A stretch of 64,000 bases of DNA from an uncultured Candidatus Saccharibacteria bacterium (GTDB lineage: Bacteria; Patescibacteriota; Minisyncoccia; Phycocordibacterales; PALSA-1337), in the NCBI GenBank assembly GCA_964495685.1, contig CAZBVQ010000001.1, forward strand, positions 373,568 through 437,567. The letters are read 5' to 3'. Shown in pieces: positions 2,025 to 57,506 of the stretch. Numbering within the stretch: position 1 is the stretch's first letter; each line of letters opens with the position of its first letter. The position numbers and the translations under genes were made by a program. The notes below the pieces were generated by a model. It had not been told where the DNA came from. It ran no database searches and worked only from the letters and a program-made list of their open reading frames with translations.

Positions 2025-2163
2025 ACTGATTATTCCTTTTCTTTGTTGTTTTTCCGTTTGTTTATGTGGCTTTATAGAGCCAAAGTTTCAGGTACTATTA
2101 TATCACACTATATAGTAGTGTGTCAAATAGACCCAAGGGCCACAAAACCCCCTTGTTGAGCAC

Positions 2164-3330
2164 TTATTTCGTATCCCTGATCATTATCGCCGGTATGATA
2201 CCGACCAGTGAGATCATGCCTACCAATACGAACAAATATTCGTGAGTCATGAAGAGGAGTCCGAATCCAGTTATGATCGGTGCAATGAAATTTGAAACAG
2301 GACGAGTGATACGGAAGAGACCGAGGACGGCGCTGTCGCGAGGAGATACCGTTTTGAAGAAATAAGTCTCCATCATGATCTCCGCAGCTGCAGCGCCGAC
2401 ACGTGTCATGAAGAGGGCAATCGCCCAGATGGCCACATTGTGTGAAGTCAGGAATGAAAGTGCGATGGTGGCGACTCCGACGATTGCGAATCCGATAGCC
2501 ATGATTTCTTTCTCGCCATAACGCTGGTCAGCAAGTTTGCCCAGAGGGTATTGGACCACCACGAATGGTATGAGCATCACCGTCAGGATAATAGCAATCT
2601 GATCCCAACTGAATCCCATCGTCTTATTCAAGTAAATCGGACTATAGATCACCATCCAGGCATAGAATGTTTGCAGAATGATGTTGCCGAAAAAGAGCCA
2701 CGACCAATTCCTGTTCGATGAGACATGTTTGATGAGTTGCCAAGGAGATAGATGAATATAGTTGGGATCTTTGAATCGAGGGAAATTCTTGTGAATGAGA
2801 TAGAGGAGCGGGAAGAGCATGGCCAGGCCGGCGATGTAGGTGTTGCGATAGTTATTCATGCCATTGATGAGCATGCTGCCGATCATTGGACCGATCAGCC
2901 AGGAAGCATTGAGTGTCGTGGTGTAGAAGCCACGAATGGTCCCCGTGTGTTGTCCATCAGTGTATTTTTCGAGGAATATGTCGAGCGTGAGACCGATCAG
3001 TGAGACGATGGCAGATTGCAAAATGAAAAATACAGCAATCCATGTCGGCGACGTGGCCGTAACAAGACCATAGAACAGAATAATCTGGATACATACGAGA
3101 CCTATCGAGACTGCATAGTTGCCGAAGCGACGAATGATGGGAGATGCGAGCAGGAAGCCCAGGATGGAAACGGCCGCGCCGATCATATAAATAATACCGA
3201 CGGTACGTTCGTCTGCGTAGAGTGACAGGAAGCTGGAGTTCGAGTACATCGGCAGCACCATGTGCAGTGTGTAGATGAAGCCGATGACTGCGATGGTGTA
3301 GATGACGTGAGAACGGGGGATGGAGTTCAT
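2164..3330 (-). CDS. MFS-type transporter (multi-pass membrane protein)
   Basis: 388 aa with about 10-12 predicted hydrophobic helices and an MFS-like architecture. Confidence 0.55.
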   Translation of the reverse strand: MNSIPRSHVIYTIAVIGFIYTLHMVLPMYSNSSFLSLYADERTVGIIYMIGAAVSILGFLLASPIIRRFGNYAVSIGLVCIQIILFYGLVTATSPTWIAVFFILQSAIVSLIGLTLDIFLEKYTDGQHTGTIRGFYTTTLNASWLIGPMIGSMLINGMNNYRNTYIAGLAMLFPLLYLIHKNFPRFKDPNYIHLSPWQLIKHVSSNRNWSWLFFGNIILQTFYAWMVIYSPIYLNKTMGFSWDQIAIILTVMLIPFVVVQYPLGKLADQRYGEKEIMAIGFAIVGVATIALSFLTSHNVAIWAIALFMTRVGAAAAEIMMETYFFKTVSPRDSAVLGLFRITRPVSNFIAPIITGFGLLFMTHEYLFVLVGMISLVGIIPAIMIRDTK

Positions 3331-3791: not shown

Positions 3792-4769
3792 ATGGACCTC
3801 AACCCCTACAAATCCAATCCCAAAACCTCATTCATGGCAGGAATGTATGAGAAGCTCCTCAAGGACGAAGCTGAAGTGCGCGGTCTCATCGAAGCTGATC
3901 CTGGCATGAAAGAGATGGCCGAGCATGAGCTCGCGTCACTCATCGAACAGAAGAAGTCGCTGGAAACAGAGATGGCGGCTATTGTCGCTGCTGATGTAGT
4001 CGAAGAAGAGAAACCCAAAGAAATGATTCTCGAAGTTCGTGCCGGTGCGGGTGGTGACGAGGCAGCACTCTTCGCAGCTGAGCTTATGGATATGTACAAG
4101 CGCTATGGCGAGAGCAAAGGGTGGACGATGAAAATCATCGATGAATCAAAAAATGACCTGGGTGGATACAAAGAGGCGTCACTTGAATTCAAAGGTAAAG
4201 ATGCATTCGAGACTCTGCGCTGGGAGACAGGTGTGCATCGCGTGCAACGCGTCCCTGAGACCGAGAAGATGGGTCGTGTCCATACCTCGACCGTGACCGT
4301 TGCTATCATGCCCATCCGCAAGAAATCCAAATTCGTCATCAATCCTGCCGATTTGGAAATGGAATTTTCGCGTGCTGGTGGTAAGGGTGGCCAGAACGTC
4401 AACAAAGTCGAATCTGCTGTCCGCTTGATCCATAAGCCGACAGGTATCGACGTGCGTTCGACTGCTGAGCGTTCACAAGGTGCCAACAAGGAATTGGCTC
4501 TCCAGATTCTCACCGCCAAACTCGAAGCTCTCGAGGAGGAAAAAGCTGCTCAGAAGTTTGCTGCTGAACGCAAGGGTCAGATCGGTACGGGTAGTCGCTC
4601 AGAGAAGATTCGCACGTACAATTTCCCACAGGACCGTGTGACCGATCATCGTATCAAGGAGTCATGGCACAACCTGCCAGCAATTCTCGCTGGTAAGTTT
4701 GACCCGATTACTGAGGCGCTCAAGGAGTTTGAGAAGACGGGGAAAACGGGGAGTTCGGATGAAGAGTAA
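3792..4769 (+). CDS. prfA: Peptide chain release factor 1
   Basis: GGQ motif ([17 protein letters not shown]). RF1-type tripeptide region [17 protein letters not shown] (PxT-like, not SPF). [11 protein letters not shown] tail. Confidence 0.85.
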
Positions 4770-4834
4770 TATCGAAATACACAAGGAGTCTGGGATTTCT
4801 GTACCTCGTGTCCACTTTATGGGGTACAGATCAT

Positions 4835-4909
4835 TGGTGCCCTCGGTAGGAATCGAACCTACATCTATTCCTTAGGACGGAACTGTTCTATCCATTGAAC
4901 TACGAGGGC
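4835..4909 (-). tRNA. tRNA-Arg (anticodon CCU)
   Basis: Manual cloverleaf on the minus strand: acceptor GCCCTCG/CGAGGGC, D-arm GTTC-AATGGATA-GAAC, anticodon loop GTCCTAA (anticodon CCT), T-arm GTAGG-TTCGATT-CCTAC, CCA encoded. Confidence 0.8.
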
Positions 4910-4986
4910 AGGGGTGACTATAATAGCTGAACGAGAAAACTATAGCATATTTTGCGAACAATGATATTTTCTGTTATAGTGTTTTT

Positions 4987-5274
4987 ATGACTGATGAAGA
5001 GCGCTCCTTACTCGAGAGAACGTACAAGCTCGCCGAGGAGAACAATGGGATACTGCGTGCGATGCGCCGAGCCAATAGGTTTTCGACGGTTATGCGTGTA
5101 CTCTATTGGGCAGCTATCATTGGTCTCAGTTTCGGTGCCTATTATCTCATCCAACCGTATCTCAATGCGACCATGGATGCATATAGCAAACTCTCAGGAA
5201 GTATTCAGGGAGTCGAGAACAATATAAATAGTGCGCAAAATACGCTGGATACGTTGAAAGGGTATCTCAAATAA
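4987..5274 (+). CDS. Small membrane protein (hypothetical)
   Basis: 95-aa ORF with one hydrophobic helix (VLYWAAIIGLSFGAYYLI), lying between two tRNA genes. Confidence 0.35.
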   Translation: MTDEERSLLERTYKLAEENNGILRAMRRANRFSTVMRVLYWAAIIGLSFGAYYLIQPYLNATMDAYSKLSGSIQGVENNINSAQNTLDTLKGYLK

Positions 5275-5280
5275 CCTCAT

Positions 5281-5353
5281 GCCGAGGTAGCTCAGTTGGT
5301 AGAGCATTCCCCTGAAGAGGGAAGGGTCACCAGTTCGATCCTGGTCCTCGGCA
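5281..5353 (+). tRNA. tRNA-Phe (anticodon GAA)
   Basis: Manual cloverleaf: acceptor GCCGAGG/CCTCGGC, D-arm GCTC-AGTTGGTA-GAGC, anticodon stem TTCCC/GGGAA with loop CTGAAGA (anticodon GAA), T-arm ACCAG-TTCGATC-CTGGT, discriminator A. No encoded CCA. A long imperfect hairpin follows at 5355-5400. Confidence 0.85.
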
Positions 5354-5486
5354 CTACTTCGCAACCCCGCCCAAAAGGCGGGGTTGCTTCGTAGTGCGGG
5401 CACGGTAAGGTTCTAGGTCATATTTCATCCACAGGAGGCCTTGTCGAATAAGGCGATTTTGTTATGCTTACCGCTGGGTTCAGTAT

Positions 5487-6017
5487 ATGCAAAAGCCAAT
5501 CCTGGGTGCACTAATCGCACTCTTCGTTGCGGCGAACGCATCGCCGCGGGACATGACTCCAGGGGAGTCAGATAAGGGTCGGCCACCGACGCATGTGCAG
5601 TTGACCGACGAACAGTTGATGTACCTCAACAACTATTGTGGTAAACGTAGCTGGGCCATTTTTCTCTGCCGTGTACTTGGTTATTTTCACGGCAGGCATA
5701 ATGCCGACATCACGCTCGAGGATTTGCGTCCTCGTGCCGCGAAACACTGCGGACTACCTTCAGATGCGGTCTGGGAATCATTTCTTGGGGTCAAGAAATA
5801 CCAGAAGTATCTGACCGAAGTAAATCGCAAGAAAATCTCCAAGGTGCTCTTCGGGCATGAAGATGCCACCTGGGTGCAGCTGCTCAACAGGATTGAGTGG
5901 CTCCGCATCAAACGTGAACAGAACGAGATCTCGATGAGAGTGCAGGGCGACCAGGGAGGTCGCCTTTTTTGTTCTAGGCCCGGCCTAGAAATTCGGTTAT
6001 ACTACCGACATGAATAG
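5487..6017 (+). CDS. Hypothetical secreted protein
   Basis: Signal-peptide-like N-terminus (MQKPILGALIALFVAANA). The 3' end of the ORF runs through a terminator hairpin and the palindrome at 5972-5990, so the true C-terminus is uncertain. Confidence 0.35.
   Translation: MQKPILGALIALFVAANASPRDMTPGESDKGRPPTHVQLTDEQLMYLNNYCGKRSWAIFLCRVLGYFHGRHNADITLEDLRPRAAKHCGLPSDAVWESFLGVKKYQKYLTEVNRKKISKVLFGHEDATWVQLLNRIEWLRIKREQNEISMRVQGDQGGRLFCSRPGLEIRLYYRHE
5946..5970 (+). terminator. Rho-independent terminator (GGCGACC-AGGG-AGGTCGCC followed by T6)
   Basis: Perfect 7-bp GC-rich stem followed by TTTTTT, seen directly in the sequence. Confidence 0.55.
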
Positions 6018-7812
6018 AACCGTCGTCGAACAGATCAAGGAGCGCCTGCCGGTCAATGAGGTTATTGGTCAGTATTTGAAATTGGAAAAGTCAGGTAATG
6101 CCTACAAGGCCAAGTGCCCATTTCACAATGAGAAGTCACCCTCATTCTTCGTCTCACCAGATCGTGGGGGTTACTACTGTTTTGGCTGTAATGCCAAAGG
6201 AGACATTTTTACATTTGTGGAACAATTCGAAGGACTCGATTTCCGCGGCGCGCTCAAAGTCCTCGCCGAACGTGCGGGAGTGCAGCTCACCTTCGACAAG
6301 AAAGCAGATGGGGAACGAGATCGTTTGTTCGATATCATGGAGGCCGCTGCGTCCTATTTTGAAGCAGAATACATTCGAGCCAAAGACGTTCAAGACTATG
6401 TGAAGAAACGCGGTATCACCGACACAACTCGCGAAGAGTTCCGTATCGGCTGGGCGCCAGAGGGGTGGCAGTCGCTCATCGATCATCTTCGAGTCAAGAA
6501 GTTTTCTGATTCACTTATAGAGAAAGCGGGACTCGGCAAGAAGACTGACGAAGGTAAATTCTACGATCGTTTCCGTGGTCGTGTGATGTTTCCCATTTTT
6601 GACTCAAGTGGTCGGGTGATCGCTTTTTCGGGACGTATTCTCAAAGATGATGGCAAGTCTGCGAAATATTTGAATAGTCCAGATACACCACTCTATGACA
6701 AATCAATGGTGCTCTACGGTCTCGACAAGGCCAAGAGTGACATTCGTCGCATGAATTACACTATCATGGTCGAAGGACAGATGGACCTCGTCATGTCTCA
6801 TCAGGCAGGGATAAAAAATACAGTTGCATCTTCAGGTACGGCCCTTACCGATGAATCGTTTAGTGAATCTGGCGCAGTGAGTAATCTCGGGCTTGTCCGT
6901 CGCTTGTCGCCAAATGTTATTATCGCCTTCGATTCTGACAGTGCGGGAAGAAAGGCGGCCATGCGTGCCGCGGGCATTGCACTTTCTATGGGTATGGATG
7001 TGAAGATTGCGGACTTGGTCGGCGGCAAAGATCCGGCCGATCTTGTTCTCCACAATCCTGAAGACTGGAAGAACGCACTCCGCTCTGCCAAGCCCATCAT
7101 CGAATTCGAACTTGGCAATGTGATGCGTGATGTGCCAGATAGCAGGAAAGTGGGACGCGCTCTGCGTGAACGAGTTTTCCCATTCCTGGCACGTATCGAG
7201 AGTAGGATGGATCAGGCACATTTCGTGAAGATGATTTCGGACAAGACGAATATTCCAGAAACGGCGGTGTGGGATGATTTGAAGAACGTGAAGGTCGAAC
7301 AAGCGAAGGGGGGCAGCGCGTCTGAGGGACGTTTCGGAGGCCACGAAGGTGGCCGAGAACCAGCTGCGCCGTCAGCAGACGGCGACAGCGTGTCCCGAAG
7401 ACGCGGTGCCCCCGGAGCGGGCCTCGACCTCATCGAGCGTCGCCTCTTCGGTCTTCTTTCGCTCATTGAGAAAACTGAACCCAAAAAGGGTGCTGAGTAT
7501 CGTGCCGCTATCAAGAAAATCGCAGACGCTTCATACGATATGCGCTGGGCCCGTATCGAACCAATGCTCGGTGATGTCGCCTTCGAAGCAGAGGCATTCT
7601 TCGGCAGCGCTCTTGCGGAATGGGATCGTCACATGAAAGAACTCATCGCCAATTTCGAGCAAAATATGGTCAATGAGGAACTTCTCGCTACTATGAATGA
7701 GCTCCGTCAGGCAGAAAAGATCGGAGATACCGCCAAGGTCGCTGAGCTCGCCAAGAAATGTCAGGTCCTGAGTATCAGGAAAGGGGAGATCGGGAAAAGG
7801 ATGAGGGATTAA
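6010..7812 (+). CDS. dnaG: DNA primase
   Basis: CHC2 zinc finger (CPFHNEKSPSFFVSPDRGGYYCFGC), Toprim region (MVEGQMDLV ... DSDSAGRKAA), C-terminal helper domain. TATACT -10 element 8 nt upstream of the ATG. Confidence 0.9.
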   Translation: MNRTVVEQIKERLPVNEVIGQYLKLEKSGNAYKAKCPFHNEKSPSFFVSPDRGGYYCFGCNAKGDIFTFVEQFEGLDFRGALKVLAERAGVQLTFDKKADGERDRLFDIMEAAASYFEAEYIRAKDVQDYVKKRGITDTTREEFRIGWAPEGWQSLIDHLRVKKFSDSLIEKAGLGKKTDEGKFYDRFRGRVMFPIFDSSGRVIAFSGRILKDDGKSAKYLNSPDTPLYDKSMVLYGLDKAKSDIRRMNYTIMVEGQMDLVMSHQAGIKNTVASSGTALTDESFSESGAVSNLGLVRRLSPNVIIAFDSDSAGRKAAMRAAGIALSMGMDVKIADLVGGKDPADLVLHNPEDWKNALRSAKPIIEFELGNVMRDVPDSRKVGRALRERVFPFLARIESRMDQAHFVKMISDKTNIPETAVWDDLKNVKVEQAKGGSASEGRFGGHEGGREPAAPSADGDSVSRRRGAPGAGLDLIERRLFGLLSLIEKTEPKKGAEYRAAIKKIADASYDMRWARIEPMLGDVAFEAEAFFGSALAEWDRHMKELIANFEQNMVNEELLATMNELRQAEKIGDTAKVAELAKKCQVLSIRKGEIGKRMRD

Positions 7813-7842: not shown

Positions 7843-8292
7843 AAGGTGCGCTACTGTCTAGATGGAGAATGTTCCACTTGTGAAGATTGGAATGACTGTG
7901 GTTGTTCTCAGATCGTTTCTAAGTACCCTGACTTTCTTCAGAAGGTCGAGGATGATCCCGAATTGATTGCTCCTACGGCCTGGTACCAAGATCTCCAAAT
8001 ACTGACAAGCTTCCCCTTTCATATTCCAAATTCGGTTCACAACTGCTACTGATGTTCGCTGAGTCAACACCTTATCTGTGAGACCGGCCGCGGGAATAAG
8101 TTCTCGCAACTCTTGAACAATAGCATCTTCGGTGCAGCTATTGAATCCATGAAATCTGATAATGATCATAGTCGGTTCTTTCGTTGGTTTACCATTTTGA
8201 TACCACGCCACACATATAACGTCAATACTACTTGCGCTACCTACGAATACCATTTATAATCATGGTCTATTAAATAACCCCCTTCTTCCTTC

Positions 8293-9540
8293 ATGAAGAA
8301 ACAACATAAGCGTCCGCGTGCCGGCGGATCGAAGGCTCGAAAGAGCGTTCAGCGTCCGGTCAAGCGTTCAGCTGGCAGATCAAAGCCGGCTCTACGAAAA
8401 GCTGGTGTACCAAAATCACATGGTAAGGGCAAGCCCATGTCCAAGGCCGACAAAGCCAAGGATTTCGAGACGCGCGCAAACAAACTGATCGCCAAAGGTC
8501 GCGATCGTGGTTTCATTACGTATGATGAGATCATGAAGGAGTTTCCTCAGATCGAGAACGATATTATGTTTCTCGATGAGTTGTATACCAAATTCGGCGC
8601 AGCCAATGTCGACGTGCTCGAAGGTGGTGGATTGCTCGAGATCGAAGATCTCGCTCCCAAGAAGCCGCAACAGCAACACTATTCTCGTACGAGCTCATCT
8701 GATTCTGCCTATGACTCTATCCAGATGTACCTCAAAGAGATCGGGCAATACCCACTCATCACTGCTTCAGATGAGAAAGATCTCGCCAAGCGTATTCAGG
8801 CAGGTGACACTGAAGCAAAGAACCTGCTCGCAAAAGCAAACCTTCGCCTCGTCGTCTCTATTGCCAAGAAATATGTTGGCCGAAGTCCAGACCTCACGTT
8901 GCTCGATCTTATCCAAGAAGGTAACCTTGGTCTCTTCCGTGCCGTCGATAAGTTCGACTGGACCAAGGGATACAAATTCTCGACATATGCTACTTGGTGG
9001 ATTCGCCAAGCTATCACTCGCGCACTCGCTGATCAGTCACGCACTATCCGTGTGCCGGTACACATGGTGGAGACTATCGCCAAGTACAAGCAGGTAGTCC
9101 GTCGCCTCTCTCACGATCTCGGTCGCGAACCACTCCCCGATGAGATTGCCACTGAGATGGGTATGGATGTCGACAAGATCTACCAGATCGAGAAGATCGA
9201 ACAGGATGTCGTGTCACTCGAGCAGCCTGTCGGTGATGATAGCGATGATGGCAAGTCGACGTTGCAAGACTTCATTCCTGACGACAAGATCCTGTCTCCG
9301 GCTGATGAGTCATCTCGTCGTATTCTCCGTGACCAGGTCACGACTATCTTGAATGATCTCTCGGAAAAGGAACGCAAGATTCTTGAGATGCGTCATGGAC
9401 TCAATGATGGCATCACGCACACCCTCGAAGAAGTGGGTAAAGAGTTCGGAGTCACCCGTGAACGTATTCGTCAGATTGAGGCCAAGGCACATGAGAAGAT
9501 CAGACAACATGAGAAGATAAATAGGCTCAAGAATTACTAA
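8293..9540 (+). CDS. rpoD: RNA polymerase sigma factor RpoD (sigma-70)
   Basis: Region 2 ([40 protein letters not shown]), region 3 and a region 4 HTH ([23 protein letters not shown]). Lys/Arg-rich N-terminus. A TATAAT box sits about 30 nt upstream. Terminator CGCCTCTCCAGGCG plus T7 at 9563-9590. Confidence 0.9.
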
Positions 9541-9639: not shown

Positions 9640-10386
9640 GTGGGATGTAACCAAAACCCGATAGTAGTTGAAAATCAAATGAAGACGAAGATGTTAGTCA
9701 TTGGCGCCTTGGCAGTTGCCTTGGCGGTAATTAACCCCATCACTATCCATGCAGTGCCCGTCACTCCTGATTATGACACGTTCGGTCCGCTTGCCGGCGC
9801 GACGTTTGGCGGAAGTGGTATTCCAAACCACTCAGTTGCGGTTAGCACGTCTGGTGGCGTGACTCTGGGTCTCGAAGCTCATCAGCGTTACGTCGGCCCG
9901 GATCTGGTGGACAATGGGGCGGGCACTTATTGGGCCAACCCTGGACCTGGCACGCCGGCCAACCTGAGCACCTGGAACTTCGCATTCTATGGTCTCGGCT
10001 CTGCTTCGGCACCTGGCGCAACGGCCCGTTTGTTCTATGACTTCGATCCGGCGATCGGCAATGACCAAAGCACACTGGGTTATGTCAATCTTGGTCTCTT
10101 GGGTTTGACCCCGGGGCAAGATTCTTGGAATCTCGGTTTTTCCTTTTTGGATACGGCCATTCCTGGTGTCGTGGTACCTCCTACCTACCCATCGTTCAAT
10201 CCGAATGCGGTTGGAGAATACAGCTTCGTCCTGGAAGCATACAACCGAGATGGGCAGACCATTGGCCGGTCAGCGATTAATGTGAACACCTCAGCTGTCC
10301 CCGACTCCGGTTCGACGTTTGCCTCCTTAGGCCTTGCCTCGCTCGGCCTTCTGGCATTTCGCAAATTCACGCTTGTGACGGCCTGA
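9640..10386 (+). CDS. Secreted protein with a C-terminal VPDSG/PEP-CTERM-like sorting signal
   Basis: N-terminal signal peptide (MKTKMLVIGALAVALAVINPITIHA). C-terminus is VPDSGSTFASLGLASLGLLAFRKF: a VP-D-S-G motif, a hydrophobic helix and a basic tail. Confidence 0.5.
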   Translation: MGCNQNPIVVENQMKTKMLVIGALAVALAVINPITIHAVPVTPDYDTFGPLAGATFGGSGIPNHSVAVSTSGGVTLGLEAHQRYVGPDLVDNGAGTYWANPGPGTPANLSTWNFAFYGLGSASAPGATARLFYDFDPAIGNDQSTLGYVNLGLLGLTPGQDSWNLGFSFLDTAIPGVVVPPTYPSFNPNAVGEYSFVLEAYNRDGQTIGRSAINVNTSAVPDSGSTFASLGLASLGLLAFRKFTLVTA

Positions 10387-21709: not shown

Positions 21710-22024
21710 ATGAGCGAAGAATATGATCCAGATACGTTACAACATGTCCAGAGTGGTGATTACATTGAATTTGTACCGTGGATTGTTGAGGAAAACGTCC
21801 AAGGGCACGAACGACTAGTTGCTTACTTTGGTGGTCATGGACCGTTCAAGGTTACCTCAATCGGCGGTGGAAAACATGGACTCTTCACCCTCTCGATTGA
21901 AGGAAAAGGAGCGCTTACAGGGGTTTATTCTAACAGCCTGTTCCGCAAAGTAGTTCCACGACACCCACCTCGTCCGACTTATACACTTGCTGAAATGGGT
22001 TTTGAATCTCCGCAGGAACGATAG
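21710..22024 (+). CDS. Hypothetical protein
   Basis: 104-aa ORF with no recognisable motif. Confidence 0.35.
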   Translation: MSEEYDPDTLQHVQSGDYIEFVPWIVEENVQGHERLVAYFGGHGPFKVTSIGGGKHGLFTLSIEGKGALTGVYSNSLFRKVVPRHPPRPTYTLAEMGFESPQER

Positions 22025-22066: not shown

Positions 22067-23224
22067 ATGGTCCACGCGCCGATGACTTCGGCGCTTTTTA
22101 AATATTCATTTTCCCCGTATACTTACCCCATGACCACCATCCTCATCATCCTTGTAATCGTCGCCATTCTGGCCAACATTTTCATGTTCGTGTTCTTCAT
22201 GCGCAAGAATCGTGTGGCTGAACAGCCAAAGGACGACACAGGACTGAAGCTTATTCTAGAACAAATCAACGAAATGTCGCGTACTGTAGATCGCAAGGTG
22301 GGAGATTTGACCAAAACTGTTGATCACAAAATCAACGAATCATCCCGCAACGTTCAAGATTCAATGCGCGCGCAACTTTCTGAGTCGTCGAAGCTCATTA
22401 AGGAGGTGACGCAGGGTCTTACCAAGCTTGATGAGACAAACAAGCAGGTGGTGTCATTTGCCGACCAGCTCCAGAACCTCCAAGACATTCTCAAAAATCC
22501 GAAACATCGCGGTATTCTCGGTGAATATTATCTCGAGACACTTCTCAAGAACGTCTTGGCTCCTGGGCAATATCAGATGCAATATCCTTTCAAGAATGGG
22601 GAAATCGTCGATGCGGCTGTTTTCGTCAAAGATAAGATTATTCCCGTCGACTCCAAGTTTTCGTTGGAAAACTACAACAAGTTAGTTGAAGAAAAGAATC
22701 CTGCAGAAAAAGAGAAGCTGGAAAAGGCTTTCGTAGGAGACCTGAAAATCCGTATTCAGGAAACCGCCAAGTATGTCAGGCCTGCAGAGAAGACTATGGA
22801 CTTTGCCTTCATGTTTATTCCGCACGAGGCTATTTATTATGATTTATTGGTCAATAAGATCGGCATGGCGGCTGATGAAACCGATAATTTGATCCAGCGT
22901 GCTGCGAGTAAATATAAGGTTATTATCGTCTCTCCGACATCATTTTTGGCCTATTTGCAAACGGTATTACAGGGCTTGAAGGCCATGCAGATCGAGGAAA
23001 CGGCCAAAGATATCATCAAGCATGTGGGGCAGTTGGGGACTCATCTCAAGAAGTATGAGGATTATCACAATAAGCTCGGAACTTCGCTTTCGACCGTGGT
23101 CAATCATTTCAACAATTCGGGCAAGGAGCTCAAGAAGGTAGATAAGGATGTTCTGCGTATTACAGGGGAGACTCCGGGGATTGATGTGGCACTGATAGAA
23201 AAGCCTGAAACTGAGGAGGAATAG
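22067..23224 (+). CDS. rmuC: DNA recombination protein RmuC
   Basis: N-terminal TM helix (TTILIILVIVAILANIFMFVFF), long coiled coil, C-terminal RmuC-like region. The true start is possibly the internal Met at 22130. Confidence 0.7.
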   Translation: MVHAPMTSALFKYSFSPYTYPMTTILIILVIVAILANIFMFVFFMRKNRVAEQPKDDTGLKLILEQINEMSRTVDRKVGDLTKTVDHKINESSRNVQDSMRAQLSESSKLIKEVTQGLTKLDETNKQVVSFADQLQNLQDILKNPKHRGILGEYYLETLLKNVLAPGQYQMQYPFKNGEIVDAAVFVKDKIIPVDSKFSLENYNKLVEEKNPAEKEKLEKAFVGDLKIRIQETAKYVRPAEKTMDFAFMFIPHEAIYYDLLVNKIGMAADETDNLIQRAASKYKVIIVSPTSFLAYLQTVLQGLKAMQIEETAKDIIKHVGQLGTHLKKYEDYHNKLGTSLSTVVNHFNNSGKELKKVDKDVLRITGETPGIDVALIEKPETEEE

Positions 23225-23329
23225 GGGAGAGGTATTTTCTAGGTGTCCGTTCATGTGCATGCAAGGAAGGATGGATCTGGTAGGCTGAAGTACTGGTATT
23301 TTTGGATAATATGGTGTTATAATTCACAC

Positions 23330-23845
23330 ATGACTAAACCATCATCTTTCCTTTTAATCAAGACCAACCTGAATTCTCTTAGGGTTGTAAGGTCTGTCAA
23401 AGAGAGTCCATTTGTGAAATGGGCAAGTGTCGTGTATGGACCGTATCAGATAGTGGCCTACGTCCAGACTGATACTGATACAGAAATGGCAAATTTTATT
23501 GAAGATTTGCGTTCACGAAGATTCATAACTGAGCTTGATGCTAGAATGGTAAAGGTCATTCCAGATGATGAGAAGCTTACTCTCCCCGAAGTAAAGGCAG
23601 AAAAAGTTGCTGTTCTACTTGTTAATGTTAATTATAAAGAAGAAAAAGAGAGAGTGGTCACTTACAATCTAAGGAAAGTCAAAGGTATAAAGCTGGCGAG
23701 AGCCATGTGGGGCCCCGCTGACATAATCGCGATTGTGGAAGCTGAGGACGCTGAAGCTATGAGAAATAAGATATGTGATGAAGTAAAAACAATGAAAGGT
23801 GTCATTTCGAACACCACATTATACTGTTATCCTAATTCTCTATGA
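23330..23845 (+). CDS. Tandem Lrp/AsnC C-terminal (RAM/ACT-like) ligand-binding domain protein without HTH
   Basis: Two repeats with the AsnC-C pattern (FLLIKTNLNSLRVV ... VYGPYQIVAYVQT ... ; VAVLLVNVNYKEE ... ADIIAIVEAED ...). Start choice (23330 vs 23243) is uncertain. Overlaps the downstream gene by 4 nt. Confidence 0.45.
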   Translation: MTKPSSFLLIKTNLNSLRVVRSVKESPFVKWASVVYGPYQIVAYVQTDTDTEMANFIEDLRSRRFITELDARMVKVIPDDEKLTLPEVKAEKVAVLLVNVNYKEEKERVVTYNLRKVKGIKLARAMWGPADIIAIVEAEDAEAMRNKICDEVKTMKGVISNTTLYCYPNSL

Positions 23846-24963
23846 AAAATAAACCTGTAGCTTTTGGTGCACTTATCTTGGTCATAGTCGCAATTGTATT
23901 GGCCGTTGTTTATTTGCCGACGCGACAGAAGGTGGCTATAGACCCTCTGAAGATCGGTGTAGATTTTCCACTGACAGGTAATCTTGCCAGATATGGCGAG
24001 TGGGGCAAAAGGGCCATTGAGATAGCTTCGGAAGAAACAAATGCCTCGGGAGGTGTTAATGGCTTACCAGTGCAAGTCTTTTTTGAGGACAACCAAGGTG
24101 AACCTTCGAAGGCGCTTTCTGCGTATCAAAAGATGAAAAGTCTAGATGGTATCGACGCAGTAATGACACTCGTAAGTTCTATTGCACTTATTGTCCAGAA
24201 GAGTGCTGAACAGGACAAGATCGTCCAAATGGACACATCTGCGTCGACCCCAGCATACAGTACTCCCAATGACTATTCCTTCAGGACAGGTGTAGTTGCT
24301 ACTCAGCTTGCAAAGGATGCGGCGCATATTCTCCAGGATAAGTTTAATGCCAAAAATATTGCAATTTTAAGTATTAATAACGATTTCGGTAAAGGGATGG
24401 TCGGTGTATTTAAGAGTTCATTCAAGGGTACTATCGTCGTGGAGCAGACATTTAATCAGGATGGGATAGATTTTAGAACTCAGCTTCTGAATTTAAAAAA
24501 ACAAAATGTTGATTTTATATTTTTGGTTGGGCACATAAAAGAGTCCGGTCTTCTTGTTAGACAAGCAAGAGAACTTGGCATCAAAACTCCCATCTTTAGT
24601 GACGTGTATTCGGTTGAGGGACCAGAATTTATCCAAAATGCAGGAGAGCTTGCTGATGGGATAGTGTATCTGGGCATACAATTTGATGCGGATAATAAAA
24701 GCCCTGAGGTTTCAAAATTTGTTACTGCATATCGAGCCAAATACGGCGAAGATCCTGGAGTGTATGCCGCACAAGCATACGACGGTATCATGGCCCTAAT
24801 CAAGGCCTACGATAAATGCCCAGACAATGAGTGCGCCAAGAGACAACTGTTTACGACAGATTTTCAAGGAGTTTCTGGTCGAATCAAATTTGATGAGAAT
24901 GGTGACGTGATAAAAGATGTTGTCCTAAAAACAATAAAAGACGGTAAGTTTGTAAACTATTAA
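23842..24963 (+). CDS. ABC-type branched-chain amino-acid-family substrate-binding protein (Peripla_BP_6-like), N-terminally membrane anchored; no cognate permease or ATPase in the window
   Basis: Signal-anchor (VAFGALILVIVAIVLAVVYL). Periplasmic binding protein type I fold motifs (IGVDFPLTGNLARYGEWGKRAIEIASEE; AILSINNDFGKG; FIFLVGH). Confidence 0.7.
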   Translation: MKNKPVAFGALILVIVAIVLAVVYLPTRQKVAIDPLKIGVDFPLTGNLARYGEWGKRAIEIASEETNASGGVNGLPVQVFFEDNQGEPSKALSAYQKMKSLDGIDAVMTLVSSIALIVQKSAEQDKIVQMDTSASTPAYSTPNDYSFRTGVVATQLAKDAAHILQDKFNAKNIAILSINNDFGKGMVGVFKSSFKGTIVVEQTFNQDGIDFRTQLLNLKKQNVDFIFLVGHIKESGLLVRQARELGIKTPIFSDVYSVEGPEFIQNAGELADGIVYLGIQFDADNKSPEVSKFVTAYRAKYGEDPGVYAAQAYDGIMALIKAYDKCPDNECAKRQLFTTDFQGVSGRIKFDENGDVIKDVVLKTIKDGKFVNY

Positions 24964-25056
24964 AAGAGCATTTACCGGGCTCTCTTTCAAAGAGAGGTCT
25001 TCGGGAAACATTGGTGCTATTCTATTGCTGAAACTGAGGAGGAATAGGGGTATTTT

Positions 25057-25094
25057 CCAGGCCCGGCCTAGAAAATATTCTAGGCCGGGCCTGG
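25057..25094. repeat. 38-nt perfect palindrome CCAGGCCCGGCCTAGAAAATATTCTAGGCCGGGCCTGG followed by a T-run
   Basis: Perfect dyad including the centre AATATT. Lies between the SBP gene stop and the rplU extended -10 element (TGTATAATG at about 25118-25126). Confidence 0.7.
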
Positions 25095-25116
25095 AATTTG
25101 CGTTTTTTGGGTCTTC

Positions 25117-25452
25117 ATGTATAATGTTCTGACTATGCAATTCGCAGTTATCGCAACCGGTGGCAAGCAGTACACAGTCTCAAAAGGGGATGTTATCTCC
25201 ATTGAGAAGATTACGGGTACCTACAAAGAGGGTGACAAGATCACTTTCGACAAGGTACTCCTCACTGATGACGGCAAAGATACTACGATCGGCACTCCCT
25301 ATATCCCCAAGGCCTCAGTCGTTGGTACTATTACACAGATTGGTCGCGCCCCGAAGATTATGGTTGTCCACTACAAGCAGAAGAGTCGTTACTACAAGAA
25401 AAACGGCCATCGCCAGCCTTTCTTCAAGGTCAAGATCGATAGTCTCAAATAA
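25117..25452 (+). CDS. rplU: 50S ribosomal protein L21
   Basis: MQFAVIATGGKQYTVSKGDVISIEKI ... is the L21 signature. Followed by terminator AAAAAACCGCTTGATGGCGGTTTTTTT at 25453-25480. No rpmA follows. Confidence 0.85.
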   Translation: MYNVLTMQFAVIATGGKQYTVSKGDVISIEKITGTYKEGDKITFDKVLLTDDGKDTTIGTPYIPKASVVGTITQIGRAPKIMVVHYKQKSRYYKKNGHRQPFFKVKIDSLK

Positions 25453-34765: not shown

Positions 34766-35392
34766 TTATTTCAGCCAGTCTAGTTTGATAACTGAAGCAT
34801 TGGGGTAGGGAGGTAAATCATAAAAAAGCTCGGGATCCGTACCTTTTTTGATTGTTTCAATAATCCTTCCTACGCCAGCGTGTGCAACCATCAAAATGTT
34901 ACCTTCATAGGCATTCCATTGTTTCAAAAATGAATTAACTCTTTCATTGAAATATTTCGGGTCCTCTGCATTTTGGGCTCGGACTAACATCTTTGAAGAT
35001 ATTTCAAATGTTGGAGTGCCTGTGAGTGTTCCCATATCATACTCCGTAATTCGAGGGTCAATCGCTATTTCTTTGTCATACCCGATTATCTCAGCCACAA
35101 TTTTTGCGGTATCCAAAGCCCTGATGAGTGGAGAGCTAATAACCATAGTTATGACGAGACCCATCTCTTTAATTTTAAGTCCTTCAGCCTTGGCTTGCTC
35201 AATCCCTCTTTGAGTTAATGGGGAATTATCTTTTTGGCCAGCAAAAACGTGCTTTAGATTGGATTCACTTTCTCCGTGTCGTATAAAATAAATCATGGGA
35301 TGAGTATAGCAAAAGTTCGATATGCGCGGTATGTGAGGTCGCTTCGCTCCTTGTCGTAGCAGCGACTTCGGTTCGAGACTTATCTCCCGCAC
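34766..35392 (-). CDS. Histidine phosphatase family protein (phosphoglycerate mutase-like)
   Basis: RHGESESN catalytic motif (IYFIRHGESESNLKH), C-terminal H of the histidine phosphatase fold (MVAHAGVGR). Confidence 0.7.
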   Translation of the reverse strand: MREISLEPKSLLRQGAKRPHIPRISNFCYTHPMIYFIRHGESESNLKHVFAGQKDNSPLTQRGIEQAKAEGLKIKEMGLVITMVISSPLIRALDTAKIVAEIIGYDKEIAIDPRITEYDMGTLTGTPTFEISSKMLVRAQNAEDPKYFNERVNSFLKQWNAYEGNILMVAHAGVGRIIETIKKGTDPELFYDLPPYPNASVIKLDWLK

Positions 35393-35422: not shown

Positions 35423-35455
35423 TTTTTTGTCTCGGCTCCGCGGCCAGGGATCGAA
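35423..35455 (-). repeat. Partial duplicate of the tRNA-Asn 3' end (acceptor 3' strand plus half T-arm plus flanking T-run)
   Basis: TTTTTGTCTCGGCTCCGCGGCCAGGGATCGAA at 35423-35455 against TTTTTGTCTTGGCTCCGCGGCCAGGGATCGAA at 35610-35642 (32/33 identical). Each copy is preceded by a different terminator hairpin. Confidence 0.6.
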
Positions 35456-35619
35456 GCTTACAGCTTCAGTACAGGCTTCGTGTCTCGCTTCGTCCTACAC
35501 TTCGTTTCGGACTCGCTGCGACATACTCAGCCTTTTCGATCCCTGGCTCGCAAAGCGTGCAGACGCTTTGCTCGCGTCGCCTCAACAAAAAATACTTCCC
35601 GAAAGAAGTATTTTTGTCT

Positions 35620-35984
35620 TGGCTCCGCGGCCAGGGATCGAACCTGGGACATCCTCGTTACGTTTGGTCTCCTATTACTAGGGGTACGGACTATATCATC
35701 TCCAATGAAACTCGTGTCAAAGCTTCATTACGGAGTAAGGCGCTTCCCAGAGCATATTGCTCCAGTACTCCCACAAGGGGATAGTCTCTGAACCTTTCCC
35801 TCACATGGATTCTTGCTATGTCATCGGTGTACATAACAAAGATTCATGTGAGGGACTTGGCTGCTGATTGCCCACATTTGCATGTTGGGGTTTCCGGCAA
35901 TTCACCTTATTTTTCAGCCTAAGTTTCCTTAGGAAGCTGCTATTCTCTAACAGCGAGGCGCTCTACCGGCTGAGCTACCGCGGA
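35620..35984 (-). tRNA. tRNA-Asn (anticodon GUU) interrupted by a 289-nt group I intron
   Basis: 5' exon at plus 35950-35984 gives TCCGCGG-TA-GCTC-AGCCGGTA-GAGC-G-CCTCG-CTGT. 3' exon at plus 35620-35660 gives TAA-CGAGG-ATGTC-CCAGG-TTCGATC-CCTGG-CCGCGGA-G-CCA. Spliced cloverleaf is canonical with anticodon loop CUGUUAA. Intron (plus 35661-35949) follows U35 and ends in G. P1 is GCTGT/GCAGC with U-G, P2 is CCTAAG-GAAA-CTTAGG. Core elements P AATTGCCGGAAA, Q AATCAGCAGC, R GTTCAGAGACTA and S GATATAGTCC are all present. Confidence 0.8.
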
Positions 35985-39201: not shown

Positions 39202-41172
39202 CTACAACAAACTCTCTGGATCAACTTTCACCTTCACATTGGGTGGCAATGTGCGTAGTTTCTCTAACAGATCCGAGTTGGGCCAGCCACCTTCGGATAG
39301 CTTGATCAGTCCATGAATGATGGAATTGCCTCGGACGGCCGCGGTGAATGCGGGGAACACATCAATCTCACGGGGTGCCAGTAGCGCCTGGACTTCTGCC
39401 ATGGCTGCGGCGATCGACTCTTTCTTGCCCTCGATAGTGATCTTGATCAATGTCGAATAGGGCGGATACTGGAATTGTTTGCGCTCCGCCAGCGTGGCAC
39501 GATAGAAGTCACTGATATTACCTTTCATGCCAAATTCGAAGACATGTTCATCGGCCTTGCGCGTCTGGACCAGGAATGAGCGCGTAGCCGTACTACGGAG
39601 TCGAGTCAGCAGGTACATTATTTTTTCTTGAATACGGAAATCAGGAAGTGCCAGAAGTGAATCGAGCGAAGCGATGGCGACATGATCTATTTTTTCGCCG
39701 AGGTGGACCAGTGCCATTTCGGTGCCGAGTAGGATACTTCCTGGCTTGGCACGGAATGAGTCGAGTGTGGCATGAATCTGTGCATCAGTCTTGGTGGTGT
39801 CGGCGTCGATTTTGAACACCTCAATATCAGGAAACTCGGCGCGGAGTTCTTCGTAGACACGATCGATACCGATGCCGAGTGGTGTCAGACGCCAACTGTC
39901 ACAGGTGCGGCATTTCTCGTTGGCATCACGTCGTTCACCGCAATGATGACACATGAAGAAAGTGCGACCAGTCGTTTTGGACGAATGAAGAACTACAGGT
40001 GATGAGCAGGTCGAACAAGAAACAATGGTTTCGCAGTCGCCACATATGGTAATAGGCGACAATCCACGTCGCATGGTCAGGATGAATAGGTGGGTACTAC
40101 TTTCTTGATTGTAGGCGATGAGTTCTTTGAGTTCTTGAGAGAGGACTCGGAAAGGTATAGTGCCTACCTCGGTTTTTTGGTCGGATGATTCTGTTGGTGT
40201 AGCGGTGCGCAATAGGCCAGATTTCATATCTATCAACACATCCTGTGCATTCGATATTGATCGCCACTTGAAGGGAGAACCCTGGGCAATTTCGTGACTG
40301 TCTACTCGGTGTAGAGTTTCGGTACGTAGGACACTGTCAGCTCGATACACGGTCTGCTTCTGTCGACGAGCGATAGTTTCGAGTGCGTGACGAATATCGA
40401 GGTAGGGATGCTTGATACTCATCCAGCCACGACTATTTTCACGTTCAATGACAATACTATCTATATCAGCACGTGGAATGACTGTGAACGATCCGGTGGC
40501 CACCACGACGACTGGGTGTGCGGTCTCGGCGATATTCTTCCAGGTGTCGATTATTTCTTTCTTGGTGAGTTTGCCGTGGAGGGTGAAGATATACCCCTCG
40601 ATACCTTTGGTCAATGCCTCAGTCAGCCACCGAGCATCTTCAATAGTGGGGACATAGAGGGCGATAGAACGTTTGCGAGCGAATTCTTGCCTGATGAGTG
40701 AGCGCCACGAACCGATACGATCTTCATCGTCGCCTTGGATGGCGTAGGTCTCATCGATGCTACCGGCCTTGAGATCGTTGAAGAAAGGATTCTGTCGTAC
40801 GGGCATGGCGATCTTGTTCGCATTTTCGAGGAGGATGTCAGAGACGAGTGAGTCGATGATAGAGCCGACGCTGGCAGCATAGTAGTCTGCGAGCACAGTG
40901 CACGCTTCCATGAATGTGGCGGGGAAAAAGGCAGTTGATTTGATGCGCCCGAGTTTCTTCATCTGGAATGAGGCGCTGCGAATTTCGGCCTTCATGTCGA
41001 CGGCGGGACGAATACTGGTGACGATGGCGTATATGTTCTTGGAGCGAAGTGGTACAGACACGATGGCACCCAAGGTCACCTCCGCGCTGGTGAAATAGGA
41101 GAGTTCACCGGCGATTTTCGATCGAGTGAGTGGGATGACGGTGATGACATTGAGGATAGGGGAAGAGGTCAT
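39202..41172 (-). CDS. priA: Primosomal protein N' (PriA helicase)
   Basis: N-terminal 3'-DNA-binding domain, helicase lobes, Cys4-Cys4 zinc-binding insert (CGDCETIVSCSTCSSPVVLH ... CHHCGERRDANEKCRTCDS), C-terminal domain. Confidence 0.9.
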   Translation of the reverse strand: MTSSPILNVITVIPLTRSKIAGELSYFTSAEVTLGAIVSVPLRSKNIYAIVTSIRPAVDMKAEIRSASFQMKKLGRIKSTAFFPATFMEACTVLADYYAASVGSIIDSLVSDILLENANKIAMPVRQNPFFNDLKAGSIDETYAIQGDDEDRIGSWRSLIRQEFARKRSIALYVPTIEDARWLTEALTKGIEGYIFTLHGKLTKKEIIDTWKNIAETAHPVVVVATGSFTVIPRADIDSIVIERENSRGWMSIKHPYLDIRHALETIARRQKQTVYRADSVLRTETLHRVDSHEIAQGSPFKWRSISNAQDVLIDMKSGLLRTATPTESSDQKTEVGTIPFRVLSQELKELIAYNQESSTHLFILTMRRGLSPITICGDCETIVSCSTCSSPVVLHSSKTTGRTFFMCHHCGERRDANEKCRTCDSWRLTPLGIGIDRVYEELRAEFPDIEVFKIDADTTKTDAQIHATLDSFRAKPGSILLGTEMALVHLGEKIDHVAIASLDSLLALPDFRIQEKIMYLLTRLRSTATRSFLVQTRKADEHVFEFGMKGNISDFYRATLAERKQFQYPPYSTLIKITIEGKKESIAAAMAEVQALLAPREIDVFPAFTAAVRGNSIIHGLIKLSEGGWPNSDLLEKLRTLPPNVKVKVDPESLL

Positions 41173-41240
41173 TGGTGTATTTATACATAATTTGTTTCAT
41201 TTGTGAAATCGCCCAAAAAACGCTAGAATACCGCCTACGT

Positions 41241-41795
41241 ATGATAAAAGAATTTGACCGCTGGAATGGGACGAAGAAAAAAATGGACCTCAAGGTGCAG
41301 GCTGTTGACTTTCATGAACGTGAAATCTGGTGGTGTTCTATTGGGGTCAATATCGGATCAGAACAACATTCTCAATCTGTTGATTTCAGTAGGCCAGTTA
41401 TCATTGTCAAGAAATTCACAAACAGGATTTTTTTGGGGATACCACTTACAACAAAAAATAGAAAAGGTTTGTTCCGAATAAGTTTTCTGTTAGGGAGTGT
41501 TTTGAATGATATGTTAGTTTTACAGATGCGATCATTCGATAGGAAACGTCTGATTAACAAAATAGGCATGTTGCCACAAGCCGAATTTGACTCACTTAAT
41601 ACATTTATTGCGCAACTGTTTACCAAAAGTATGAAAACCCCGATTGACGGGGTTTCCGAGGCCGAAGCCAGTGTGTTTACGGAGTTTCATGTTGAAACCT
41701 CGTATACCAGAAGTATAGAAGAACATCGGCTTTTGTCAAGATTCTATGGTGAGTTGTATGCATATAGAATGTATCGTTCGGGGATATGTCTATAA
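41241..41795 (+). CDS. PemK/MazF-family endoribonuclease-like protein (solo; no adjacent antitoxin recognisable)
   Basis: REIWWCSIGVNIGSEQHSQSVDFSRPVIIV ... GIPLTTKNRKGLFRISF matches the MazF/PemK/EndoA core (EIWW ... G ... GSEQ ... RP-V-I-V ... P-L-T). It has an extra about 70-aa C-terminal extension. Confidence 0.5.
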   Translation: MIKEFDRWNGTKKKMDLKVQAVDFHEREIWWCSIGVNIGSEQHSQSVDFSRPVIIVKKFTNRIFLGIPLTTKNRKGLFRISFLLGSVLNDMLVLQMRSFDRKRLINKIGMLPQAEFDSLNTFIAQLFTKSMKTPIDGVSEAEASVFTEFHVETSYTRSIEEHRLLSRFYGELYAYRMYRSGICL

Positions 41796-56703: not shown

Positions 56704-56774
56704 GCAAAAAATCACCCGCTTCGACCTGAGCCGTGGCGGGATGAAATTTAAAATTTATTAGATAATTAACACAC

Positions 56775-57419
56775 ATGAAAAACTCACAAAAAGGTTCGGT
56801 GGCAGTAATTTTATTAGTAATTATTATTGTAGTTTTGGTAGGGGTAATTGGTTGGATTTATTTCAAACAGTCAGCTCAGGTGAGTCAAGTTTCTGATTCA
56901 ACATTGACCGTAGACACCCAATCAGTAACCTCAAATCCCAATAATACGATTCAACCTAAAAAGGGTATTGTTCCAAGTAATCAGAACTCGTCACTTAAAA
57001 CTTACAGGAATACGCAGTACAGTTTTTCATTCCAATATCCTCAAGGATATTCTATAACTGATGGGAAACCAAACAGTCAAACGGTTGGCGTATGGTTTGT
57101 TTGGCTATCAGACGCTAGCCAAGATACAGTGACAGGAATTAACGTATATCAATCAGATTTAACACTCGATCAATTTGTTGCAAACGAAAAACAAATCTTA
57201 TCTAGTTCTCCAGGCACAATTTCTTTCACTGAGGCTGGTCGGGTATCACTTGGGGGAAATACTGCAACCAAAGTGAACTATTCATTCTCGGGTAGGAATA
57301 GTGGCACGTCTGAAATTTACTATTTCAAGAAAAATGATTTCGTCTATAGAATTCAGCTTAATCAAACGATTGATTCTCAGGTTAAACAAGATATTCTTTC
57401 AACATTCAACGTAAAGTAA
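56775..57419 (+). CDS. Membrane-anchored hypothetical protein encoded in an AT-rich cassette
   Basis: N-terminal TM (VAVILLVIIIVVLVGVIGWIYF). Compositionally distinct (clearly lower GC than its surroundings). Flanked by direct repeats of the ychF 3' end. Confidence 0.45.
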   Translation: MKNSQKGSVAVILLVIIIVVLVGVIGWIYFKQSAQVSQVSDSTLTVDTQSVTSNPNNTIQPKKGIVPSNQNSSLKTYRNTQYSFSFQYPQGYSITDGKPNSQTVGVWFVWLSDASQDTVTGINVYQSDLTLDQFVANEKQILSSSPGTISFTEAGRVSLGGNTATKVNYSFSGRNSGTSEIYYFKKNDFVYRIQLNQTIDSQVKQDILSTFNVK

Positions 57420-57460
57420 AGACGTAAATAGTTTTATCAGGCTCAAGTCGCACCCCTAAA

Positions 57461-57506
57461 GGAGTATGTGGTCAAGGATGGGGATGTCATAGAGTTTAAG
57501 GTCTAA
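57461..57506 (+). repeat. Diverged direct repeat of the last 46 nt of ychF (40/46 identical to 56658-56703)
   Basis: GGAGTATGTGGTCAAGGATGGGGATGTCATAGAGTTTAAGGTCTAA against GGAATATGTGGTTAAGGATGGGGATGTGATGGAGTTTAAGGTGTAG. Encodes EYVVKDGDVIEFKV*. Confidence 0.7.

Follow-up and report, generated by a model that had tools for sequence, protein, structure and literature searches.

Integration by tyrosine recombinases takes place at att sites, direct repeats of 8-60 bp of which one includes the 3' end of a tRNA or housekeeping gene that stays intact (PMC5704250). Genomic islands as well as integrative and mobilizable elements (IMEs) of this type are located at the 3' ends of several genes, with SGI1 at trmE and other elements at guaA, rplL and rpsI, and cis-mobilizable elements (CIMEs) are decayed integrative and conjugative elements (ICEs) or IMEs that have kept attL and attR but lost the genes for integration and transfer (PMC5704250). 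Here, we describe a scar of similar appearance in a 64-kb stretch of contig CAZBVQ010000001.1 from an uncultured member of the Patescibacteria, henceforth called the window. A 1.8-kb cassette with one gene for a RAM-domain protein and one for a substrate-binding protein (SBP) is located between rmuC and rplU, and is flanked by a direct repeat of the rmuC 3' end. Such a duplicated gene end is the familiar mark of DNA that has been integrated at the end of a gene, and is unusual here only in that no integrase was found and that the pattern recurs in the same genome.

The repeat is an exact 23-mer, CTGAAACTGAGGAGGAATAGGGG, with two occurrences only in the window, at 23205-23227 (copy 1) and 25028-25050 (copy 2), both on the forward strand. 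No further matches were found in the 64 kb when up to three mismatches were allowed, and none of 100 dinucleotide-preserving shuffles of the window gave a match to the 23-mer. Copy 1 (attL-like) consists of the final 17 coding bases of rmuC, its stop codon TAG (23222-23224) and GGG, whereas copy 2 (attR-like, 25028-25061, forward strand) is an orphan rmuC end of 23 nt followed by TATTTTCCAGG (25051-25061). Repeat-family and alignment analysis identified a similar tail after copy 1 (23228-23243, forward strand), in which five extra bases, AGAGG (23228-23232), separate the 23-mer from TATTTTCTAGG (23233-23243). The two tails share the pattern TATTTTC(T/C)AGG and match at 10 of 11 positions, and the full duplicated block measures 39 nt in copy 1 versus 34 nt in copy 2. 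The tail of copy 1 is also the exact reverse complement of 25067-25077. An earlier note on this DNA, made from the sequence alone, had described the exact repeat of the rmuC end with its stop codon and the recurrence of the tail, both of which we confirm; it counted 11 matches in 12 tail positions and left the 5-nt indel unmentioned. That copy 2 still reads A-E-T-E-E-E-stop in frame, as claimed there, is true but a trivial result of the sequence identity, the open frame around copy 2 being only 27 codons long.

The target gene rmuC (22130-23224, forward strand, 364 aa) has been left intact. It matches nearly the whole Pfam RmuC profile (positions 4-271 of 291, E = 2.6e-51), aligns end to end with its homologs in the relatives, and its product is identical to that of the 364-aa gene called in public assemblies. 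The copies differ in what follows them: in agreement with the earlier note, only after copy 2 are there a perfect hairpin (25055-25096, arms of 19 nt), a T-run and the rplU promoter. The repeat ends on its right side 7 nt into one of the palindromic units (TTCYAGGCCSGGCCTRGAA) of this hairpin. The region is 100% identical in five contigs from different ENA and Logan accessions, and the repeat structure is therefore no assembly artefact. With 23 nt the repeat moreover does not reach the k-mer length used in assembly, to judge by the contig names (k141). Chance is effectively ruled out as its source by the shuffles, and an assembly artefact by the identical assemblies and the short repeat length.

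We compared the junction in 80 species-level relatives, which were fetched with RmuC and are labelled Candidatus Taylorbacteria, Parcubacteria or Paceibacterota. In 53 of the 80, rplU is located downstream of rmuC on the same strand; the two genes are only 12-238 nt apart in 33 of these 53, while 0.4-4.4 kb of unrelated genes intervene in the remaining 20. No RAM or SBP gene was found within 6 kb in any of the 80 relatives. Of the closest relatives, 13 are informative, and ten of these have rmuC and rplU close together, with spacers that align with the sequence after copy 2. The insert is also the 1.8-kb segment with the lowest GC content in the window (41.2%, compared to 48.3 ± 2.1%, mean ± standard deviation), and the GC content at third codon positions (GC3) is 0.37-0.38 in the cassette versus about 0.5-0.6 in most other open reading frames (ORFs) of the window. 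With rplU next to rmuC in 33 relatives and both cassette genes missing from all 80, rmuC-rplU is the ancestral junction and the 1.8-kb segment is a lineage-specific insertion. The composition of the segment is foreign, and the module has been horizontally acquired. Both the ancestral junction and the insertion of a cassette had been proposed in the earlier note, and the relatives bear this out, with cassette genes in none of the 80 rather than in all. Exact-protein look-ups with rmuC, SBP and rplU retrieved no empty site within the species but only 100% identical contigs, all with the cassette. Among the 20 relatives with other sequences between rmuC and rplU, these are ordinary genes as read from ORF translations, for example glmS-like, typA-like and dinB-like genes, and no repeats were found around them.

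The first cassette gene (23330-23845, forward strand) encodes a protein of 171 aa with two RAM domains (the Lrp/AsnC ligand-binding domain) in tandem and no helix-turn-helix (HTH) domain. Residues 99-163 match Pfam AsnC_trans_reg (E = 1.3e-9) and residues 6-75 match the solved 75-aa stand-alone AsnC-type proteins 2cvi and 2e1a; the 200-aa ORF that contains the gene (23243-23845) has a GC3 of 0.37. The second gene (23842-24963, forward strand, GC3 = 0.38) starts within an ATGA overlap with the stop codon of the first and encodes a Leu/Ile/Val-type SBP of 373 aa that covers positions 1-342 of the 343 in Pfam Peripla_BP_6 (E = 7e-50). Its best match among solved structures is the branched-chain amino-acid binding protein 4gnr (E = 2e-43), and a hydrophobic N-terminal anchor predicts attachment to the membrane. 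No permease or ATPase gene is located beside it. The profile and structure matches thereby uphold the two gene assignments made previously, a RAM-domain protein without HTH and a lone Leu/Ile/Val-type SBP.

Outside the species, the closest homologs are adjacent genes on a single bacterial contig (L087), with amino-acid identities of 77% for the RAM protein and 68% for the SBP. The pair in L087 is located between a dCMP deaminase gene and HIT/thyA genes, that is, at an unrelated locus, and is likewise a low-GC patch (40.8% versus 50-53% in the flanks). Nucleotide similarity to the window is restricted to the coding region; no repeats flank the pair in L087, and only an imperfect 34-nt inverted repeat was seen upstream. 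The next-nearest homologs of both genes are found in archaea of the DPANN group, at separate places for each gene. For the SBP, these are 54-56% identical and belong to Liv-type ABC transporter loci with several SBPs, permeases and TrmB regulators, one of them labelled Aenigmarchaeota; for the RAM protein, they are 62-68% identical and reside on archaeal contigs, two of which are labelled Pacearchaeota in the list of homologs. In the one RAM context inspected (L089), the neighbors are proteasome and SBDS genes. The sharing with other taxa that the earlier note suggested looking for was thus found, as a pair at a different locus in L087 and as separate homologs in DPANN archaea. Gene exchange between Patescibacteria and DPANN archaea, including an ABC-transporter gene, has been reported on statistical grounds only (PMC12455944). 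The insertion shows, in a clean case and at single-base resolution, how a sensing or uptake module with its nearest relatives, beyond the pair in L087, in DPANN archaea came into the streamlined genome of a bacterium that has not been cultured.

Duplicated gene 3' ends, which the earlier note proposed to look for around other cassettes, were found at two other loci in the window and in several of the fetched contigs. The last 47 nt (56656-56702) of ychF (55606-56703) recur 803 nt downstream (57459-57505) with 42 of 47 positions identical. Counting the stop codon there are six differences, all of them at third codon positions, the chance of which is (1/3)^6 or about 0.0014. This restriction to third codon positions implies that one of the two copies evolved elsewhere, as a functional gene end. 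Between the copies is one low-GC gene, which encodes a PsbP_2-like protein (56775-57419, GC3 0.30), and the relatives with the same greA...ychF...leuS order have no PsbP-like gene. The GC3 of ychF itself drops to 0.30 over the last ~250 nt. At the second locus, a tRNA-Asn(GTT) gene on the minus strand (35620-35984), the anticodon loop is split by a group I intron (about 35661-35949), so that ARAGORN detects the tRNA only after in silico splicing. An orphan copy of its 3' end and trailer (31/32 nt) is present 187 nt downstream (region 35424-35984) and begins exactly at the T-loop. The orphan adjoins a low-GC histidine-phosphatase gene (34766-35392). Two other repeat pairs, 30738/32674 and 43201/48707, were rejected as remnants, being parts of paralogous genes (GH130 and MreB).

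We surveyed 986 kb of fetched DNA for similar repeats. Every orphan gene-end copy identified in this survey is a 3' end, and no clear orphan 5' end was seen. In L011, the end of a histidine-kinase gene, identified by reading its translation, is duplicated around a PemK toxin gene, and in L061 a gene end is duplicated around a Na/Pi transporter gene. In L077, a gene end with its terminator is duplicated around a pair of small ORFs that on reading resemble a toxin-antitoxin pair. In L088 (Aenigmarchaeota, 1887-3115), 52 nt from the 3' end of a Liv-type permease gene, with a Shine-Dalgarno sequence among them, are duplicated perfectly (52/52) on either side of an SBP gene, so that a copy stands before both of two different SBP genes in tandem. 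The SBP genes of this locus, and those of L100 with 3-5 of them in a row, appear to have been stacked like cassettes.

Several observations on these contigs stand beside the gene-end copies. L077 is a Candidatus Nomurabacteria contig with two adjacent repeat-flanked inserts just upstream of rmuC (4140-5959); the first lies between the gene end with terminator and a diverged orphan copy (CDYCAYR...*), while the second is a 201-aa gene with a perfectly duplicated intergenic sequence of 55 nt, including a hairpin, on its two sides. A 24/24-nt repeat in L011 (7555-7578 / 8287-8310) flanks a recR gene that is unusually divergent (60% identity), and the whole rmuC-rplU-recR-dnaB block is flanked by a 139-nt repeat in L056 (5838-5976 / 10124-10262) and by a repeat of about 44 nt in L012 (959-1002 / 6268-6311). 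The repeats in these three contigs hint that core genes, too, have been rearranged by the same kind of event.

We tentatively favour the view that the rmuC repeats are an attL/attR-type scar left by an integrase-less, CIME-like integrated element, although we regard this as a plausible reading that falls somewhat short of probable. The final 23-34 nt of rmuC would have been present on the incoming DNA as well, and one reciprocal crossover within the shared rmuC-end sequence would have integrated it, with an intact rmuC running into the insert on the left (attL-like) and an orphan rmuC end before the original terminator and the rplU promoter on the right (attR-like). The agent would most likely have been a site-specific recombinase of the tyrosine type, encoded elsewhere or since lost, and the remainder would be a miniature integrase-less element of the CIME type. 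The predicted empty-site junction is ...GAAAAGC-CTGAAACTGAGGAGGAATAGGGG-TATTTTCCAGGCCCGG... and the predicted circle junction is ...GGTGCTATTCTATTG-CTGAAACTGAGGAGGAATAGGGG-AGAGGTATTTTCTAGGTG..., where we infer both the circular intermediate and the recombinase. A site-specific origin is supported by the 3' bias of the orphan ends, a polarity typical of integrases, and by the start of the tRNA-Asn orphan at the T-loop, which is a classical att position. The third-position differences at ychF fit such an origin as well. The occurrence of the RAM-SBP pair between unrelated genes in L087 supports the mobility of the module.

Several results weigh against a site-specific origin. No integrase, transposase or other element gene was found in the insert or in the window ORFs scanned, which for the integrase agrees with the earlier note. 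The rmuC end is a repeat-flanked site in none of the 80 relatives, even though 20 of them have other inserts between rmuC and rplU. Since the C-terminal tail of RmuC varies between species, the element would need an attP tailored to one lineage. Reading of the sequence and of the repeat list revealed no convincing inverted-repeat core sites around the 23-mer, and the two cassette flanks share no motif above chance, a TAGAAAA/TTTTCTA 7-mer pair having been seen by eye only. In several relatives, similar repeats are found around core genes or around SBP genes in tandem (L011 recR, L056 and L088), and these look like products of general recombination rather than of an element. Scans of JGI metagenomes and IMG/VR yielded no attP form, empty site or related element. 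The 23-mer, the RAM protein and the SBP had no matches in IMG/VR, where single-protein patterns are of limited sensitivity, and the single 23-mer match in the JGI metagenomes was in L091, but the species is absent from the JGI set, so that these negatives weigh little. The match in L091 (JGI contig Ga0307989_1007287, 3099-3122, 57% GC) comprises 24 nt identical to copy 2; it forms the 3' terminus (...TETEEE*) of a gene for a Prim-Pol/AAA_25 replicase, after which GAGCAAG repeats abound. Beyond the 24 nt, the contig has no other resemblance to the window, and the match is probably due to chance, although a uniform model expects about 0.03 such hits.

The insert could also have entered without any integrase, by homology-driven integration through the short rmuC-end homology, with a close relative that had the module downstream of rmuC as the donor and with uptake by, for example, natural transformation. 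We consider this somewhat unlikely, yet not far behind the favoured reading. One route would be a RecA-mediated single crossover with a circularised fragment; another would be homology-facilitated illegitimate recombination, in which a homologous crossover inside rmuC is combined with an illegitimate joint in the last 20 nt of the recipient rmuC, such that the native end is orphaned. The latter mechanism is established in transformable bacteria (PMC3240628), competence has been proposed for the Patescibacteria (PMC12455944), and the element genes that neither route needs were not found. Homology would also account for repeats of 23 to 85 nt at diverse target genes, for copies that in six cases cease to be similar at the stop codon or no more than about 14 nt from it, and for the sequence after copy 1, a homeologous form of the native spacer that differs by one indel and one mismatch. 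The copies of ychF and of the L011 histidine-kinase gene differ only at third-codon or synonymous positions, and those of the L077 gene end have diverged in their tails, both of which are expected under this scenario because one copy would come from a diverged relative. Repeats around the L011 recR gene and around stacked archaeal SBP genes (52/52 nt in L088) point in the same direction. Yet rmuC is beside a RAM-SBP pair in none of the 80 relatives, leaving no donor, and with a close donor two-sided homologous recombination should dominate and leave no duplication. A mosaic rmuC was not detected, in that sliding-window identity to 19 relatives showed no breakpoint, these relatives being, at only about 80% identity, too distant to resolve one, and the GC3 of rmuC is flat with no drop at the 3' end. 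The scenario further predicts symmetry, yet no clear orphan 5' end was seen, and a start at the T-loop, as in the tRNA-Asn orphan, would be rare for a random joint.

A further explanation, which we regard as improbable, is that the target site was duplicated in place: foreign DNA would have entered at a break with staggered ends, such as one in the palindromic terminator, and fill-in or a switch of the replication template would have duplicated 34 nt. The 23-nt core is perfect, and one duplication plus two later mutations could account for the whole 34 nt, with a probability of roughly 0.1 that both would fall in the last 11 nt. The palindrome into which the right repeat edge falls is a plausible break site, and the perfect 55-nt duplication, with its hairpin, around a single gene just upstream of rmuC in L077 would fit as well. 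Transposase and terminal inverted repeats are absent, however, and the duplications known from transposition are far shorter than 23-55 nt. The scenario gives no reason why the duplication should end at a stop codon in most cases, and six of six third-position differences at ychF are unexpected for a neutrally decaying orphan; indeed, this pattern, which is expected under homology-driven integration too, counts mainly against duplication in place. Such duplication is possible for rmuC taken alone; for the parallel case of ychF, the codon pattern contradicts it. That no insertion occurred at all, the pair being ancestral and lost in the relatives, or the repeat a product of chance or of assembly, is hardly credible. 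All five contigs of the species carry the cassette with no within-species empty site on record, yet both genes are absent in 80 of 80 relatives with 33 tight junctions, the composition is foreign and the assemblies are identical; the shuffles, the contig comparison and the relatives' junctions effectively refute this idea. The site-specific integration suggested in the earlier note is not established, as no related element, attP or same-species empty site was found and the homology route fits almost as well. The mechanism thus lies between two known kinds of process, an integrase-type scar and a homology route.

The position of the insert suggests how its genes may be expressed. No terminator was found between rmuC and the RAM-SBP pair, and the left non-coding flank (23244-23329, forward strand) holds an extended -10 box, TGTTATAAT (23315-23323), that as read from the sequence ends 6 nt before the RAM start codon. 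The box is not listed by the consensus promoter scan, which demands a -35 hexamer; it is a predicted promoter of the RAM gene, and its spacing suggests a leaderless mRNA. The right non-coding flank (24964-25027, forward strand, 64 nt), as read from the sequence and covered by the terminator scan, contains no T-run terminator. Transcription would probably occur by read-through from rmuC as well as from the extended -10 promoter, both transcripts would stop at the old rmuC terminator, and translation of the RAM and SBP genes would be coupled. This original terminator (25055-25106, forward strand) consists of two 19-nt palindromic units that form the hairpin followed by the T-run. Downstream of it are the TATAAT -10 box of the rplU promoter (25120-25125, forward strand), in a region that aligns with the rmuC-rplU spacers of the relatives, and rplU itself (25135-25452, forward strand; Pfam Ribosomal_L21p, E = 7e-33).

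A TATAAT-like -10 box located 6-9 nt before the start codon, in many cases extended by TG and in the absence of a Shine-Dalgarno sequence, was seen in several genes of the window, at 23315-23332 (RAM), 25117-25137 (rplU), 56760-56777 (PsbP-like) and 5990-6012 (putative dnaG, a label assigned from the N-terminal sequence only). This arrangement suggests leaderless mRNAs for all four. The 19-nt palindrome family TTCYAGGCCSGGCCTRGAA has 6 hits in the window versus 0.04 expected, at 5972, 25055, 25078 and 61813, with look-alikes in coding sequence at 13580 and 20875. The intergenic copies are located at the stop codon of leuS or just upstream of promoters, namely those of the putative dnaG, of rplU and of a sigma-like gene, and the family could be an operator or a REP-like (repetitive extragenic palindromic) element. 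Three other segments of the window are peculiar to this lineage: a low-GC3 ORF of 104 aa just upstream of rmuC (21710-22024) that is absent from the loci of the relatives; a low-GC gene for a PemK/MazF-like toxin (41172-41795) between a putative priA and a putative murA (a match to the Pfam EPSP_synthase family); and about 1.4 kb from the ychF remnant to leuS (57507-58911) with no convincing ORF, Rfam hit or similarity to the relatives.

What the scar means depends on the mechanism. If it was integrase-dependent, this is an ordinary decayed island. If it was integrase-free, it would mean that naturally competent organisms with reduced genomes gain genes by a route that has been under-appreciated. 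In either case the insert is a small genomic island with a duplicated gene end on its two sides, and its moderately notable points are the host lineage, the DPANN-like cargo and a pattern that recurs without an integrase. A broader version of the latter, which we think rather doubtful, is that Patescibacteria, and perhaps DPANN archaea, routinely gain and reshuffle modules of one or two genes in an integrase-free manner by anchoring them on conserved gene 3' ends; the incoming DNA may carry a homologous gene-end hook, and the displaced native end may stay behind as an orphan. If this were true, orphan 3' ends would provide a readable and datable record of transfers, including those between domains, in uncultured organisms. 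The footprint is seen again at ychF, at tRNA-Asn and in several relatives, and orphan gene ends could therefore serve as markers by which transfer events in metagenome-assembled genomes are located and polarised.

With regard to known systems, the insert has in common with an integron cassette that it is a small unit of one or two genes, poor in promoters, whose locus differs between genomes, but integron cassettes do not duplicate a target gene's end. An integron cassette was rejected since the 64-nt 3' flank contains only an 8-bp palindrome, the boundary TATTG|CTGAAAC has no GTTRRRY core (no dedicated attC model was run), and no intI gene, other integrase or attI site was found. An XerCD/dif-type site was rejected on reading the sequence, and a transposon or insertion sequence because no inverted repeat pairs the cassette ends, there is no transposase and a repeat of 23-34 nt far exceeds typical duplications. 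The Liv-type (HAAT) loci of DPANN archaea (L088, L099 and L100) contain arrays of SBPs that are 54-56% identical to that of the cassette, and an SBP gene of L088 is itself placed inside a perfect permease-end duplication. The cassette SBP belongs to the same Liv-type (HAAT) family over a near-full profile, but in the window and in L087 it lacks a permease and an ATPase and is coupled instead to a protein with two RAM/ACT-like domains.

The classical products of homology-facilitated illegitimate recombination replace or delete recipient DNA and are not known to leave a recognised orphan gene end, and for the rmuC insert no donor is known. With that process the insert shares the shortness of the foreign DNA, the homology at one end and the absence of mobile-element genes, and the process would explain gene-end copies that differ only synonymously (PMC3240628). 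The islands and IMEs integrated by tyrosine recombinases carry their own integrase beside one att site, whereas the rmuC insert has none, and rmuC as a target is not reported in PMC5704250 or the other sources cited; as in these elements, a conserved gene 3' end has been targeted and duplicated, and the original terminator displaced downstream. From described CIMEs the insert differs in measuring only 1.8 kb, with non-coding flanks of about 100 nt and 64 nt, and in having no trace of a parent ICE, IME or prophage and no known cognate integrase or conjugation genes. Its mobility is putative, and its host is one of the Patescibacteria, while CIMEs have been described in Firmicutes. It nevertheless has the make-up of a CIME: the repeats are within the range of 8-60 bp and include the rmuC stop codon, one of them holds the gene 3' end, rmuC is intact, an unoccupied site that would correspond to attB is present in 33 relatives, and the insert consists of cargo only, with no genes for integration or transfer inside.

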